DNA of 64,000 bases from a virus (taxonomy: Duplodnaviria; Caudoviricetes): IMG/VR virus record IMGVR_UViG_3300037448_000016, positions 13,935-77,934 of that record. One strand, 5' to 3'. Each line of letters begins with the position of its first letter. Position 1 is the stretch's first letter. The notes below the pieces were generated by a model that saw only the letters and a program-made list of their open reading frames with translations, made no database searches and was not told where the DNA came from. A program made the translations under genes and the position numbers. Shown piece after piece: positions 2,491 through 47,211 of the stretch.

Positions 2491-4763
2491 CACGTGGCGT
2501 ACGGTTCCGGCACCGGATCGGCAGCGTTCCGGACGCCACCACCCTTGATCTTCAGTCCCACCACGAACCACGTTCCGGACGACTTCACCCGATGGAAGCC
2601 AGCGTTTTCCAGGCGGGAGTAGAACTCCCCGGCTCTCAGGCGGCCGTTCCCGTTGCGGTCGGCCCACATCTTGTAGGTCGAGTAGCAGGTGGTCTGTAAC
2701 TCCCGGTGGTCTTCGGTGAGCGTGCATTCCTCTTCGACCCACTGCCGAACCTGGTCTATCTTCGTAGCGAAATCCGCCTCGCCCTGGGCCACTTCGCCTT
2801 CGGACTTGAAGTTACGCCGGACCATCAGGACCCGGAGCGCCTCCACGGCGCGGGCGGCGACGGCCGGGAGTTCGGCGGCCAACTTGTCGTCCAGATCGGG
2901 ATCGACTTCGGAGTCGGTGATCTGGCGGTCGAACTTGATGATCTTCCAGCGGCGCAGGTAGCCGAATGACGTGTCGGCCGAACCCGGGGCCTTGTTCGCG
3001 CTGAACATCGGTACGGCCCAGCACGTGTAGCGGAACGACTGACGGTGTTTCTCCTCAGCGTCGAGCATGTCGCCGCCGGTGAGTTTCTTGAACTTGCCGG
3101 TGTTCTCCTGGAACGTGGGGTCGATGTCCCCGGCCAGGTTGGCGATCCGGCCGAACAGGCTGGCAGCGGCGAACCGGTTGTTCGACAGCGAGTCCAGGTC
3201 CACGGCGGCGCAGTTCGCCGGGCCGAGCATGTGCTCGATCACCCGCATCAGCGTGCCTTTCCCGTTGCGCCCGTTGCCCAGCAGCATGAACGCCACCTGA
3301 AGCGGGTTGCCCGAGAACAGCATGTAGCCGAGCATTTCCCAGGTGTACTCGATGTAGTCGGGGGAGAGGATCTGGGACAGGAACTTGTCGAACAGCGGGG
3401 TGTCCTTGTCGCCCGTCCAGGCGAGCGGGAACTGCACGGTGGAGCCGAAATGCGGGGCGTGGTCGATGAGTTCCCCGGTACGCCAGTCCAGCATCCCGTT
3501 CGTGAAATTCATGTAGTCCGCGATCGGCTCGACGTTGATCTCGCCGGTGTAGTGCCGGACCATCGTGGCCGCGTTGGAGGCGTGGTTGCCCCGGAAGCGC
3601 GGGCCGAGCAGCCGGACGGTGCGGGCCTCGACGACGTGCGGGTCGGACTTCCAGACGCCGTTCTTGTACGACCAGAACCCGCCGTCGCGTCCCCACAGCA
3701 GCGGGCCCATGTCCATCGCGTCGCGGGCCAGCAGTTCGGCGTCGATCCCTTCCTTGCCGAAGTACTCGTCAGGCCGCCGTGGAGGCTGCCAGGACGTCGT
3801 CACGCTCACCGGCGCCGTGGTCTGCACGCTGGCTTTCTGGGCGGCGTCCTTGGCTGCGAGCCGCCCCTGCACCTCAGCCTTGCGCTTGACCGGATCGGTG
3901 GCCAGCGCCTGCGAGACGGCCCAGGCGATGACCCCCTTGAACTCGTTGCGGGGGAACCGGTCCCCGGCCATGTACGCCTCGAAATCCTGCCACAGACCGT
4001 CGATCACGGACTGGGCCGGGTAGTACCCGGCGCGGGCCTCGCGCATCCCCCAGACCGCTGCCCGGACCAGCGCCTCGTGCCGCGAGCCCCGGGCGTCGGT
4101 GCAGTCGTCCACGAACTTGGCCAGTACCGGCTTCAGCAGGTGGGCCATCTCGGAGTGGTTGTTCTCCGCGATGAAATCGGCCACCGTCTTGTCGTCGGCC
4201 ACGTCTTCGGCCCGCTGGCCGTTCGGGAGTTTCGATGAGATCTCCGGCGGCAGAACGGGAACCTCACCGGTGCGCACCCAGTGGTAACGCCCGTGGTCCT
4301 TGGTGTGGGCCGAAGGCGCGACGACGATGATGCCGTTGGTGCCGCGCACCTCACCGAATGCCTGCCCGAGTTCGCCCCGCCCGTTGCCGAGGACGCGCCC
4401 TTCCGGGACGGTGAAGATGTAGTGGCCCCGGCGCGGGTCGTTGTCCCGGGTGGACTGGAACGGCGCTGAGAGCAGGTGCGGAACAAGATCTTTCGGGAAG
4501 TCGTCCGGCGAGTCGACGTCCAGTGCCACGGCGCCGGACCGGCCGACGTGCAGGGCGAGCATCAGGTTGGTGCCCGCGAACCAGTCCGCGATCTCCATCG
4601 GATCGTTGGACGTCTTGTGCTGCCACTTGTTCCCGAGGATTTTCGCCGGGCGCTTCGTGTCGGGCTCGACGGGAAGCACGTACCAGCCAGCCCGCGCGTA
4701 AGCGATTGCGGCGGTGATGATATCGGCGTCGTCTGTGACCTCGGGAATGCGCAACGCTGTCAC
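2490..4763 (-). CDS. Bifunctional primase/polymerase (Prim-Pol) fused to D5/P4-type SF3 helicase
   Basis: N-terminal AIAYARAGWYVLPV...VALDVD...GHYIF...GIIVVAPSAH; C-terminal Walker A GNGRNGKG, KKLTGGD and AEEKH; winged-helix-like tail. Confidence 0.9.
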   Translation of the reverse strand: MTALRIPEVTDDADIITAAIAYARAGWYVLPVEPDTKRPAKILGNKWQHKTSNDPMEIADWFAGTNLMLALHVGRSGAVALDVDSPDDFPKDLVPHLLSAPFQSTRDNDPRRGHYIFTVPEGRVLGNGRGELGQAFGEVRGTNGIIVVAPSAHTKDHGRYHWVRTGEVPVLPPEISSKLPNGQRAEDVADDKTVADFIAENNHSEMAHLLKPVLAKFVDDCTDARGSRHEALVRAAVWGMREARAGYYPAQSVIDGLWQDFEAYMAGDRFPRNEFKGVIAWAVSQALATDPVKRKAEVQGRLAAKDAAQKASVQTTAPVSVTTSWQPPRRPDEYFGKEGIDAELLARDAMDMGPLLWGRDGGFWSYKNGVWKSDPHVVEARTVRLLGPRFRGNHASNAATMVRHYTGEINVEPIADYMNFTNGMLDWRTGELIDHAPHFGSTVQFPLAWTGDKDTPLFDKFLSQILSPDYIEYTWEMLGYMLFSGNPLQVAFMLLGNGRNGKGTLMRVIEHMLGPANCAAVDLDSLSNNRFAAASLFGRIANLAGDIDPTFQENTGKFKKLTGGDMLDAEEKHRQSFRYTCWAVPMFSANKAPGSADTSFGYLRRWKIIKFDRQITDSEVDPDLDDKLAAELPAVAARAVEALRVLMVRRNFKSEGEVAQGEADFATKIDQVRQWVEEECTLTEDHRELQTTCYSTYKMWADRNGNGRLRAGEFYSRLENAGFHRVKSSGTWFVVGLKIKGGGVRNAADPVPEPYAT

Positions 4764-27844: not shown

Positions 27845-28858
27845 TCAGAGCGTAGCGGTCGTGGTCACGACCTCCGCGTGGAACGCCTTGGCCCACGTCG
27901 GATCGTAGACGCCACTGAAGGTCCACTCCACGGCGAAGACTCCGTCCTCGTCGCTCATGGTGCCCACGTCGGTGATCTGACCGGCCACGTCCAGGGTGAC
28001 CTTGTGGTTGACGATCAGCGGGGTTCCGCCGGTGCCGGTGTAGATGTTCGGGCCAACGCCTTCCAGCCGCATGAACACGGTGGAACCGGCCCGCAGCGCG
28101 ACCAGGCTGGCCATGCCCTGGGCGTCGGCCTCCTGCGTCACCTTCATCTCGATCGTCGGCTCGGTCTCCACCGTGGCCACGAACGAGGTCTGAGCCGCGT
28201 CCACGACCCATAGTGGGTCGTACCGATCTCCGATCGTCAGTTCACCTTTCAGCGTCCGGAGCATCTTGGTGGTGCCCAGCGACGCCGCCGTGGAGTCCAT
28301 GTAGAAGGACAGTTCGGACGGCCGGACCGGCAACTGGGCCAGGATGGTCGGGCTCGCGGTGAGGGTGACGCCGTCCTGGAGAGACTTCCCGAAGACCTTC
28401 CCACCGAGTTCGATCTTGTCCCGGCTCCACTTCCAGGAGTACTCCTGGAAGATCATCCCGGCCGCGCGGTGCGCACGGAACGAGGAGCCCTGCTCGATGG
28501 TGAAGGTCTTCGGGGTGTCGTCGTTGAAGTTGGCCGAGTCGAAAGCCCACTTCGTGGCCCCGGTCGGCGTGGCGCCGTCCGTGATCCCGGTGACCACCGG
28601 CGAGTTGATTACCGAGGACAGCGCGTATGGCAGTTCCGGGTAGACGGGCATCCCCGACAACTTGCCCTCGACCCACTCCTTGCCGACGATCTGCGCGTTG
28701 GCGTATTTCTGGCCGTCGGGCTTCAGGGCGTTGACGTCGATCGAAGGCCCGATCTCGAACCCCATCGACCCGAGCCGCTTGTTGGCGGCGACGGCGGTGC
28801 CCGGCGTGGTCTCCACGCCAATCTGCGCCGCCTGAGTGATACTTGACCTCTCTGCCAC
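27845..28858 (-). CDS. Major tail (tube) protein
   Basis: 337 aa; QIGVETTPGT N-terminus; position. Confidence 0.85.
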   Translation of the reverse strand: MAERSSITQAAQIGVETTPGTAVAANKRLGSMGFEIGPSIDVNALKPDGQKYANAQIVGKEWVEGKLSGMPVYPELPYALSSVINSPVVTGITDGATPTGATKWAFDSANFNDDTPKTFTIEQGSSFRAHRAAGMIFQEYSWKWSRDKIELGGKVFGKSLQDGVTLTASPTILAQLPVRPSELSFYMDSTAASLGTTKMLRTLKGELTIGDRYDPLWVVDAAQTSFVATVETEPTIEMKVTQEADAQGMASLVALRAGSTVFMRLEGVGPNIYTGTGGTPLIVNHKVTLDVAGQITDVGTMSDEDGVFAVEWTFSGVYDPTWAKAFHAEVVTTTATL

Positions 28859-44302: not shown

Positions 44303-44912
44303 GGTGACGTCTCCTAGGTGAGCGGAACTCGCCGGGCGGTGCTTCCGCTTCCGGCGGTGAGGGTTTCCAGAGAGTGGGCGGCTGGTGACAGGACCGATCG
44401 TCCAATGCACCCCTCCACGGCGAGGCGGGCCCGCGAGCGGGACAGCGGTCGTCGTGGTGGTCACCGTCCAGCCGAGCGGGAATTGGCTCGACAGGTCCAT
44501 GAGTGGCAATTCGATGACGCACCTCCCGGTAGCGAAATCAGGGTGCCACAGCAACGGCCGAACGGGCGAGTACGGACACAGAAACGGCCCACCGGGGTCG
44601 AGTCCGGTGAGCCGTCCTGCCAGACAGATAACACGCTGTCAACCGTGGCGTTTACCGGCCGCTCGCCCTGTCCGCCGTGCGGCTACGATCCAGTCATTGA
44701 CCGGGCGCGATGTCGCAACGGTTTCCAGATCTGGGATCCTACACCGGATGGTGCCCGGAGCGCACCCCGCCGGGCCGGGTGGAACGACGGATCTGGAGCA
44801 CCACTCCATCACCGTCGAGTGCTGGGCCGCGATCCGGGTTCCACCCCGGGCCGACCGTATGGCGCTCAGTTCGCAGTCTCTGGCCTTGCGGCGTAGTGCT
44901 GCTCACCTTCTG

Positions 44913-45008
44913 CGTGCCCCTGCCGGTCTCGAACCGGCTCGACGGGTGCTCCACCGTCTTTAACCTAATGGGCGCGTCCGCCCGGGGCTTGCGACCGGCG
45001 GTAGGCAC
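44913..45008 (-). ncRNA. tRNA-like element (long variable arm, degenerate anticodon arm)
   Basis: GTGCCT/GGGCAC acceptor-like stem; T-arm GCCGG-TTCGAGA-CCGGC; GACGG/CCGTC arm. Confidence 0.55.
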
Positions 45009-45150: not shown

Positions 45151-45207
45151 TGGTGGAGCCCCAGGGAATCGAACCCCAGTCGGTTTCCGCCGAGATAACT
45201 CGGCCCC
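45151..45207 (-). ncRNA. Mini tRNA-Ala / tmRNA-TLD-like RNA (57 nt)
   Basis: 5' GGGGCC and 3' GGCTCC-A-CCA with G3:U70; T-loop TTCGATT. Confidence 0.6.
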
Positions 45208-45217
45208 CTGCTGCCAG

Positions 45218-45296
45218 CGTGCCCCTTGACCCTCAGCGTCCGCCGGAGGATCGCTCCAACGCTGCGAGGGTACAGCCGGTTGGGGCTGCGAGACAC
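45218..45296 (-). ncRNA. Multi-stem structured RNA with an acceptor-like stem
   Basis: GTGTCTC/GGGGCAC, CAGCC/GGCTG, CCCTC/GAGGG, AGCGT/ACGCT and GGAG/CTCC stems. Confidence 0.45.
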
Positions 45297-45333
45297 AGTC
45301 TTCCACGCTTGACTGGACGCTGTCAAGGTTTTG

Positions 45334-45840
45334 TCAATTGCCAATGCGGTCTCGCTTGTCCAGGTTGCAGCCCAAATGAGCCAGTTGGACATTGGCCAGC
45401 ACGTGCTTGCCACCGCGCGAAATCGGGAACCGGTGATCGAGGCTTTTGCTCGCTCGATCCGGATACTCCAGCGTCATATCCACCAGTCCGCCGCAGAGAC
45501 GGCACGTCCAGCCGTCGCGGCGGGCGACCTCCGTCAGCAGGATGCGCTCACCGGAGTCCATCTGTGCTCGGCGCCGGTGGTAGGCATCGCGGCGCCGGTC
45601 ATTCCAGCCACCAGCCGATTCGTACTCGGCCGCGTAGTCCCGAGGCGGACGTGACTCTTTCAGGTGGGTGTTGCAGAGACCTTTCGCGCGATGCGGCCGG
45701 TTGCAGGATTTCCGCGAGCAACGGCGGGGGTTCGCTCGCTCCTGGCATTGCTTGCAGCAGTACAGCCTGGGGCGGCCAGATCCGGTACGGAATGGGAGCA
45801 AATTGGCGCATGGAAAGGCTTGACAGGTCGTTGTCGTCAC
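45334..45840 (-). CDS. HNH endonuclease with N-terminal Zn-finger
   Basis: RDGWTCRLCG, SLDHRFPISRGG and NVQLAHLGCN. Confidence 0.9.
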   Translation of the reverse strand: MTTTTCQAFPCANLLPFRTGSGRPRLYCCKQCQERANPRRCSRKSCNRPHRAKGLCNTHLKESRPPRDYAAEYESAGGWNDRRRDAYHRRRAQMDSGERILLTEVARRDGWTCRLCGGLVDMTLEYPDRASKSLDHRFPISRGGKHVLANVQLAHLGCNLDKRDRIGN

Positions 45841-46616
45841 GGCTTCAGCCTACCAGTTCACGCTCCCCCGTGCGACGCCCCGACAATCAACTGACAACTG
45901 ACTATTTGAACCAACTTGTGGAAAAAGTGCTCTCCCCCTTAGGTCCAGGCGCGCGAGGCGGGGAGGGGGCGCCCCCCAGGGTGGGGCCCGAGCCGAGCCG
46001 GAGCCGCAGCCCCGAGGCGCCCTGTGGTCAGCCGCTTGACAAGCCGTGGTCAGCCGTGAGAGGGTGGCCCCATGCCGCAGTGAGGGGCACCCGGAAGGGG
46101 CTCGCACAGCAGCAGCAGCACCCCCGCTGCACCCCTGCACCGCACGGAGCCTCGCTCCCTCTGCACAGCACGGGTCCGGAGGGGCAGGCACCACAGCACG
46201 GCAAGGCAGGCTTGACAAGCCCCTGACAAGGGCTGGTAAGGTACGACCAGCACCACCGAGGACCGCACTACATGCAAGAGCCGTGTGCCGAAGGCGCCCG
46301 TGAGCGGACCCCCTGCGACAGGACCCCCTTGTCGCTAGCAGGGACCTACGCTCCGAGCCACGCTAGGCCGTACGGAGGGTGAGGGTTCCCAACGCTGAAA
46401 CGCGGGAACGCCGTAACCGACCACAGGGGAGTCCTGTGGGAGGGGCGTTCAAACCGGGCGGACGGAACGCGATCCACCCCCCCGGACCTACGGAACACGG
46501 TAGGCGGGCTGCGAGAGCCGCCGGGGGGGCTAGTCAACGGCTTGACAAGCCGCTGACAAGCACGCTAAGGTTCCACCACGACGACGACGCACCGACACCG
46601 CCCCTGGAGGCAACCA

Positions 46617-47162: not shown

Positions 47163-47211
47163 GGCCGGAGGACCGCGAACACGGCGGTACGGCTCGACAC
47201 CTCCTCCGGCC
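47163..47211 (+). repeat. Three-way-junction RNA motif, copy 1
   Basis: GGCCGGAGG-ACCGC(GAACACG)GCGGT-AC-GG(CTCGACA)CC-T-CCTCCGGCC. Confidence 0.8.

Follow-up and report, generated by a model that had tools for sequence, protein, structure and literature searches.

The window, by which we mean the whole 64-kb stretch of DNA analysed here, belongs to a 77,934-bp IMG/VR virus record that carries 127-bp direct terminal repeats, is rated 100% complete by CheckV and has a GC content of 66%. Its large terminase is ~55% identical to the terminases of Arthrobacter, Streptomyces and Gordonia phages, which identifies the source as an uncultured actinophage-like virus. Between positions 44303 and 45333 is a gap of ~1 kb without coding signal. 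On one side of the gap lies an HNH endonuclease gene (45334-45840, minus strand), and on the other the packaging and head module, which comprises, all on the minus strand, a small ORF and the genes for a 334-aa protein, the large terminase, the portal, the protease and the capsid. The element that is the subject of this analysis lies within the gap, on the minus strand.

Some 65-70 nt upstream of the element is a promoter-like site, a variant of a motif with ~22 occurrences across the genome. A scan with the consensus promoter did not call this variant, which is a putative promoter. The repeated motif itself reads TTGACAAC-N3-YTGAC, followed by a TAnnnT -10 element, and among its ~22 sites are those at window positions 46212, 47544, 49472, 56979 and 58287. 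In many cases just ~10 nt separate the motif from a start codon, after which come runs of GACGACG type; this arrangement suggests that early transcripts may be leaderless or have short leaders. The features of the locus, together with the evidence for each, are as follows (L numbers denote contigs carrying related loci, described below).

45297-45326, minus strand: promoter-like site (TTGACA, 18 nt, AAGACT), a variant of the phage's repeated promoter, kept in L124 and L125
45226-45290, minus strand: 5' leader, structured and conserved, with its end right at G1 of the 75-nt form; nearly identical in L124, similar in L125
45151-45225, minus strand: preferred extent of the RNA gene, 75 nt (72 nt plus CCA), anticodon-less and with alanine identity; from the minimum free energy (MFE) fold of the 75-mer, homology to L132 and L126, and the end of the leader
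45151-45207, minus strand: the 57-nt form of the original prediction, a nested alternative 5' end with the inner strand GGGGCCG; from the RF00023 and R2 alignments
45219-45225, minus strand: outer acceptor 5' strand GGGGCAC, with G3 opposite U70, an A6xG67 mismatch and C7:G66; from the sequence, with an identical heptamer in L132
45205-45218, minus strand: D-loop-like linker without a stem, 14 nt long and containing UGG-CAG; UGGGUAG stands at the same place in L132 and L126
45189-45204, minus strand: central hairpin of 6 bp with a 4-nt loop, at the position of an anticodon arm or of tmRNA helix 2, without a 7-nt anticodon loop; from predicted folds
45162-45178, minus strand: T arm with a 5-bp stem, two basal G-U pairs and the loop UUCGAUU; from the sequence, identical in L132 and L126
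45151-45161, minus strand: acceptor 3' strand GGGCUCC, discriminator A (45154) and encoded CCA (45151-45153); from the sequence

The original prediction had described a 57-nt mini-tRNA of alanine identity, a tmRNA-type tRNA-like domain lacking an mRNA part, and a reading of the letters bears out its anatomy. From 45207 to 45151 the minus strand gives the 5' strand GGGGCCG, 22 nt, a T stem UGGGG/CCCUG with the loop UUCGAUU, the 3' strand GGGCUCC, A and CCA. Acceptor pairs 1:72 to 6:67 are formed in this 57-nt form, G3:U70 included, and position 7:66 is G-G. The alanine identity set (G3:U70, A73 and CCA) is thus present on a tRNA-like element, and in 45151-45207 there is, as had been stated, no anticodon arm with its 7-nt loop and neither an mRNA part nor a tag frame. 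Having no anticodon loop, the element would be unable to decode. The acceptor 5' strand is separated from the T arm by 40 nt in the 75-nt form and by 22 nt in the 57-nt form, the 3' linker being 10 nt; G3:U70, A73 and the 3' end are common to both. In the 75-nt form the 5' linker carries a tRNA-type UGG-YAG motif, and between this D-loop-like linker and the T loop an elbow contact would be expected.

ARAGORN and Infernal had been proposed as checks. Standard settings were silent: ARAGORN called no tRNA and no tmRNA, standard or permuted, at the element, and Rfam returned 0 matches to it at gathering thresholds. Below threshold, however, the tmRNA family RF00023 aligns from end to end, with model positions 1-374 falling on exactly 45151-45207 at 26.6 bits (E 2e-10 per genome) or, on 121 nt, at 18.1 bits (E 5.5e-6), against a cut-off of 47 bits. 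In this cmscan alignment the positions of the tmRNA D-loop signature (GG..UUCGAC) and of helix 2a are deleted. At the corresponding positions the 75-nt form has a G-rich linker without a stem, followed by a hairpin; the signature is lacking. The tRNA family RF00005 has no match anywhere in the genome. Outside the clan, the top Rfam match is mascRNA-menRNA (RF01684), at 20.4 bits against a cut-off of 42.5 bits, and the T arm gives a partial match, of 13.6 bits, to Deinococcus_Y_RNA. Searches of cultured phages by blastn, with the element and with its L126 homologue, yielded either nothing or generic matches to T arms and 3' ends. Resemblance to the tmRNA tRNA-like domain accordingly stands; descent from tmRNA rather than from tRNA is not established, given the missing D-loop signature and the tRNA-type UGG-YAG linker.

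To what extent might such an arrangement arise by chance? By our own estimate, the chance that some pairing 5' strand occurs within 45 nt is p ~0.1-0.2, and in a scan of the locus three alternative 5' strands each formed 6 of 7 pairs; six acceptor pairs taken alone are weak evidence. The element as a whole is, nevertheless, significant beyond chance. A covariance model built from six look-alikes, the DS6A gene discussed below among them, with the window sequence left out (R2), scores the element at 45.0 bits (E 5.3e-7) as the sole significant match in the 64-kb window, the next match having an E of 0.18. A second model (R1), of which the window sequence is itself a part, scores the element at 73.8 bits and detects no further copy in the genome. 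Acceptor stem, hairpin and T arm make up the predicted fold of all seven look-alikes; in their alignment, covariation is seen at four of five T-stem pairs, and none of the seven lacks G3:U70. The central hairpins were not brought into register by structure-aware realignment, so that covariation in the hairpin is a matter of inspection and single-sequence folds and carries no count.

Folding distinguishes the two forms. The MFE fold of the 75-mer (-31.5 kcal/mol) consists of acceptor stem, central hairpin and T arm. For the 57-mer the tRNA-like fold, at -18.8 kcal/mol, lies 5 kcal/mol above the optimum of -23.8 kcal/mol, because GGGGCCG is also the 5' arm of a 6-bp hairpin, and its acceptor pairs have a probability of 0.12. 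The fold z-scores are weak (-0.8 to -1.0), and precursors longer than the 75-mer have a different predicted fold.

Several other identities were considered and rejected. With a lowered threshold ARAGORN reports a decoding tRNA-Pro(CGG) at 45151-45225, the cloverleaf of which, at -17.7 kcal/mol against the MFE of -31.5 kcal/mol, is 14 kcal/mol worse; at this setting the program makes 241 calls in 78 kb, which is noise. A permuted or two-piece tmRNA is at odds with the normal order of the 5' and 3' strands, and RF04321 scores just 11.9 bits. A 10-bp flank helix bracketing the 57-nt form (45221-45211 with 45132-45123) was dismissed on the grounds that flank pairing, here or in the homologues, is no better than in shuffled controls. 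A YrlA/Ro60 system was discarded because neither RF02553 nor PF05731 has a match in the genome.

Related loci were found by way of the neighbouring 334-aa protein and by searches with the 3' half of the element; one search of viral contigs with the neighbouring protein gave no matches. Two of the loci, both with the gene order of the window, carry homologues of the element itself. In L126 (184-254) the neighbouring protein is 43% identical. In L132 (6332-6267) the same-strand ORFs that follow correspond to large terminase, portal and protease in size and order, on which features alone, rather than on a protein-family search, they were matched. The 3' half, consisting of T arm, 3' strand and A (24-26 nt), is identical in the window, L132 and L126, and the flanks are unrelated. 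No pattern imposed the 5' side of the L126 element, and the search that led to L132 used the 3' half alone. The encoded CCA, present in the window as the original prediction had it, is peculiar to the window: both homologues read A-CGC instead, and this part of the proposed alanine set is not conserved. The 3' strand with its discriminator, GGGCUCC-A, also occurs in a true phage tRNA-Ala (L136).

The homologues bear on the position of the 5' end, and indicate that the 57-nt boundary originally proposed is probably wrong. The L132 element opens with GGGGCAC, the sole 5' strand available there, and the same heptamer is found in the window at 45225-45219, which places the start at 45225, 18 nt upstream of that first proposed. 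From this start the window, L132 and L126 align over their full length as 7-nt strand, linker, hairpin, an ACCG-R-C linker end, T arm and 3' strand. The hairpin itself varies: L132 has the same stem with a 6-nt loop, L126 has a different stem of 5 bp, and the loops range from 4 to 6 nt across the three. The leader provides a second indication, in that its alignment with L124 and L125 breaks down right after ...GGGUCAA; the copy in L124, an 87%-related contig, stops exactly at G1 of the 75-nt form. The homologues, the end of the conserved leader and the MFE fold together lead us to prefer 75 nt. In favor of the 57-nt form are the use of GGGGCCG as 5' strand in L126, L137, L139, DS6A and L001, and the fact that RF00023 and R2 both pick GGGGCCG. 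We judge the 75-nt form about twice as likely as the 57-nt form to be the true molecule, and GGGGCAC at 45225 is, to judge from the homologues, probably the ancestral 5' strand.

The element might be a non-functional remnant, either a decaying phage tRNA with scrambled D and anticodon arms or an old attP core with chance pairing on its 5' side. That the element had been recognised by no tool at default settings, that six acceptor pairs come easily by chance (witness the alternative strands), that the closest relative, L124, is without the element, and that true tRNA genes occupy the slot in relatives are all in keeping with such an origin, as is the existence of attP cores of this kind in other actinophages. 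Those cores provide a direct comparison: the true attP fragments of phages Milly and Niklas adjoin integrases, and score 22 bits or nothing with R1. In the complete genome studied here, tyrosine (PF00589) and serine (PF00239) integrases have no match. Among 185,579 species genomes, a 25-mer of the 3' half that includes the CCA has 0 matches; the 24-mer without CCA matches just the tRNA-Phe of a low-GC Clostridium MAG, in addition to low-GC tRNA-Phe genes of metagenome contigs, and no high-GC genome of that set contains the 3' half. An att relic, which the original prediction had itself put forward as the finding that would count against it, was rejected on these observations: there is no integrase, and no high-GC genome among the 185,579 matches the 3' half. 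Against a remnant of either kind stand also the fact that conservation in L132 and L126 extends to the 3' half and the 5' strand but not to the flanks, the retention of the central hairpin with a different sequence, and the leave-one-out R2 value (E 5.3e-7). We regard a remnant as very improbable. Judged by its sequence and conservation, the element is probably a real phage RNA gene, tRNA-shaped and under selection.

Relatives carry various genes or modules in the same slot. L124 has, in place of this element, a different tRNA-like gene (3788-3871) that scores 42 bits with RF00005, above the cut-off; it has G3:U70, A73 and a 17-nt anticodon loop, is output by ARAGORN as tRNA-???, and begins at the same base after the shared leader as does the 75-nt element. 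L125 has a positional homologue without alanine identity (406-479), a 74-nt cloverleaf-like module with a different and fully paired 7-bp acceptor stem, A3:U70 and G73. One of its hairpins is capped by UUCG and a second has a loop of 6 nt; a 7-nt anticodon loop is lacking, and the top Rfam match of the module, to tRNA-Sec, is below the cut-off at 24 bits. L126 and L132 have tRNA-Met in addition to the alanine-type element, and the more distant relatives L127, L130 and L140 have tRNA-Met alone. Three of the four non-decoding occupants possess alanine identity. The varied contents mark the slot as a position for accessory tRNAs or tRNA mimics.

Among published RNAs, the closest is the 'TLD only' (CDS-less) tmRNA of Mycobacterium phage DS6A (PMC4131195, PMC11915505), the gene for which we located at 28478-28560 of JN698994. 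Like the DS6A gene, the element is encoded by an actinophage (actinophage-like, in the case of the window virus), and has G3:U70, A73, the T loop UUCGAUU, a short hairpin instead of an mRNA part, no tag frame and the same predicted fold architecture. The 5' strand of DS6A, GGGGCCG, is the inner strand of the window element. Both align with RF00023 from end to end and below the cut-off, DS6A at 43.2 or 34.7 bits and the window element at 26.6 or 18.1 bits. The differences are that DS6A keeps a tmRNA-type D-loop (GG..UCGAC) and a helix-2a-like stem, the positions of which are deleted in the alignment of the window element; that its acceptor stem is perfect over 7 bp and its CCA is not encoded, whereas the window element encodes CCA; and that it precedes a DNA polymerase III gene, whereas the window element lies ahead of packaging genes. 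The element is in the same architectural class as the DS6A 'TLD only' tmRNA; such an RNA has so far been published for this one phage, and the window element is a further example.

With the tRNA-like domain of bacterial tmRNA (RF00023) the element shares an acceptor stem formed by the two ends of the molecule, a terminal CCA, the alanine identity, a T arm and a stemless D-loop (features as given in PMC3968760, where the AlaRS and RNase P determinants on this domain are also described); it differs in having no mRNA-like domain, resume codon, tag frame, pseudoknots or D-loop signature. CDS-less tmRNAs are also known from jakobid and oomycete mitochondria and from Mallomonadaceae plastids, the plastid cases being ~65 bp (PMC11915505). 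These organellar RNAs likewise consist of little beyond a tRNA-like domain and have no tag frame, but they differ from the window element in that they co-occur with imported SmpB and are of demonstrated tmRNA descent. Alanine minihelices have been used in studies of AlaRS. The window element has the same identity set as these and as tRNA-Ala, and differs from tRNA-Ala in lacking a D stem and a 7-nt anticodon loop. To mascRNA-menRNA the likeness is one of shape, that of a small tRNA-like module within a long non-coding transcript; mascRNA belongs to a vertebrate family, cut by RNase P from long RNAs, and the window element falls outside that family.

Searching IMG/VR by pattern revealed numerous further short elements whose acceptor stem is completely paired. 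Anticodon-less elements of alanine type occur on unrelated contigs at L086 914-976, L031 10175-10243, L014 6818-6879, L001 5501-5571, L137 2300-2372 and L139 3841-3910. That of L086 (63 nt) keeps the tmRNA D-loop signature and, at 63.4 bits, passes the Rfam tmRNA cut-off. On L137, ARAGORN gives a doubtful 'tmRNA*' of 649 nt, which begins close to the element and encloses a tRNA-Gly.

Which function could account for the maintenance of such an RNA? The original prediction had suggested that it could be an aminoacylatable decoy, an SmpB/EF-Tu sponge or a shield against tRNA-targeting defence toxins. The reading that we favor, tentatively and with a probability of about 0.45 in which the reality of the gene is included, is that of a tRNA-shaped, alanine-accepting, non-decoding RNA whose target is ribosome rescue, where it would compete with tmRNA or itself rescue without a tag. 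By analogy with what is established for tRNA and for the tmRNA tRNA-like domain (PMC3968760), the RNA would be processed and charged by host enzymes. It would be transcribed from the conserved promoter ~65 nt upstream, as part of the non-coding leader (~1 kb) that precedes the packaging genes; cleavage by host RNase P would occur at G1, and host enzymes would trim the 3' end to CCA. Host AlaRS would charge it by way of G3:U70 and A73, and EF-Tu would bind the acceptor/T-arm helix. More speculatively, the RNA could compete with host tmRNA for SmpB, AlaRS or EF-Tu; alternatively, and just as speculatively, it might enter stalled ribosomes with host SmpB and rescue them without a degradation tag. 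In E. coli a TLD-only molecule is described as strongly inhibiting tmRNA, perhaps by titrating SmpB (Mao et al. 2009, as cited in PMC4131195 and PMC11915505). Since neither the tmRNA D-loop signature nor helix 2a is aligned, SmpB binding is not implied by the sequence of the window element, and a search for a phage SmpB gene found none in the genome.

In favor of this reading as a whole we count the homologues L132 and L126, which stand in the same place upstream of the packaging genes, and the 87%-related L124, which has a different tRNA-like gene with G3:U70 and A73. Counted against it are a score below every curated threshold, the two nested 5' strands, the lack of conservation of the CCA, the lack of a phage SmpB, the A3:U70 and G73 of L125, and the distant relatives that have tRNA-Met alone.

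The same slot comparison lends itself to a different explanation, in which the tRNA shape serves to recruit RNase P and the 3' tRNA-processing enzymes and the alanine identity is inherited baggage. As a module of RNA processing, or 'punctuation', the element would cut the long leader and set stable ends for the late (packaging) transcript, as mascRNA does for MALAT1. Its place in a structured non-coding leader of ~1 kb, directly behind the conserved 5' leader, would suit such a role, and so would the readiness with which relatives exchange it for other tRNA-like modules, including that of L125, without alanine identity, and a plain tRNA-Met; the sub-threshold match to mascRNA-menRNA (20.4 bits) points the same way. 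The genome also contains five 49-nt T-loop-like three-way junctions located just past stop codons, and their A-CGCA tail is the trailer that follows the L124, L126 and L132 elements. A bare processing signal, however, has no need of a G-U wobble at 3:70 or of A73, yet these are kept in the window, in L132 and L126, and in the unrelated gene of L124. Moreover, 24-26 nt of the 3' half are identical although the neighbouring protein is just 43% identical, which points to sequence-specific readers (AlaRS, EF-Tu or T-loop enzymes). We consider a processing module unlikely, if the strongest of the alternatives to an action on ribosome rescue.

The five junctions deserve description in their own right. 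They lie on the plus strand, 5-10 nt past stop codons, at window positions 47163, 47891, 48746, 49101 and 50709, and consist of a covarying 9-bp outer stem, a 5-bp hairpin and a 2-bp hairpin with a T-loop-like loop of CUCGAAU type. In three of the five the junction is followed by ACGCA, the trailer found after the tRNA-like genes of L124, L126 and L132. The junctions may be tRNA-like processing sites.

Some toxins modify the acceptor ends of tRNAs, and some cell-envelope transferases depend on Ala-tRNA. An alanine-charged or CCA-ended RNA could accordingly act outside ribosome rescue, as bait for acceptor-end-modifying defence toxins (nucleotidyltransferase or acetyltransferase) or as a substrate supplied to Ala-tRNA-dependent cell-envelope transferases. 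The anatomy is as a decoy or supplier would have it, with an intact acceptor/T-arm minihelix, a CCA end and no decoding part, and many unrelated phage contigs have elements of this general class. Anatomy is the whole of what speaks for the element itself in this role: no partner gene or defence context was identified at the locus, the sequence points to no particular toxin, and the homologues have no encoded CCA. The case is a doubtful one, and we place it well below that for a processing module.

It is conceivable, although we give the idea a similarly small chance, that the swap-in slot for non-decoding tRNA mimics and the five 49-nt junctions are parts of one phage-wide system that combines 'tRNA punctuation' with a control dependent on charging. 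Polycistronic phage RNAs would be cut at the modules by host RNase P and 3' tRNA-processing enzymes, and the alanine-accepting mimic so freed would tune ribosome rescue in late gene expression.

To the single published case the locus adds a small family of homologues, which share a conserved place before the packaging genes. Close relatives offer a natural comparison between this RNA, a tRNA-like gene with alanine identity, a module without alanine identity, and tRNA-Met alone, by means of which the question of whether charging matters, or shape alone, becomes testable. Should the RNA block or divert trans-translation, it would represent a phage counter-measure or a device for takeover; trans-translation is, in addition, a drug target in mycobacteria.

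Two minor observations concern the leader and the slot. A second conserved leader module (44903-44995, minus strand) consists of GUUAAAG, a hairpin, a T-arm-like hairpin (GCCGG/CCGGC with the loop UUCGAGA) and the tail AGGGGCACGC; it has counterparts in L125 and L126, and its last part is also present in L124. The 10-mer AGGGGCACGC is repeated at 45227-45218, and the two copies bracket ~315 nt that are absent from L124. The tRNA-Met(CAT) that recurs upstream of packaging genes is located at L126 479-554, L127 555-628, L130 252-325, L140 644-720 and L132 6436-6509; the L127 and L130 copies have one unpaired acceptor position, which a reading of the strands puts at 1:72.
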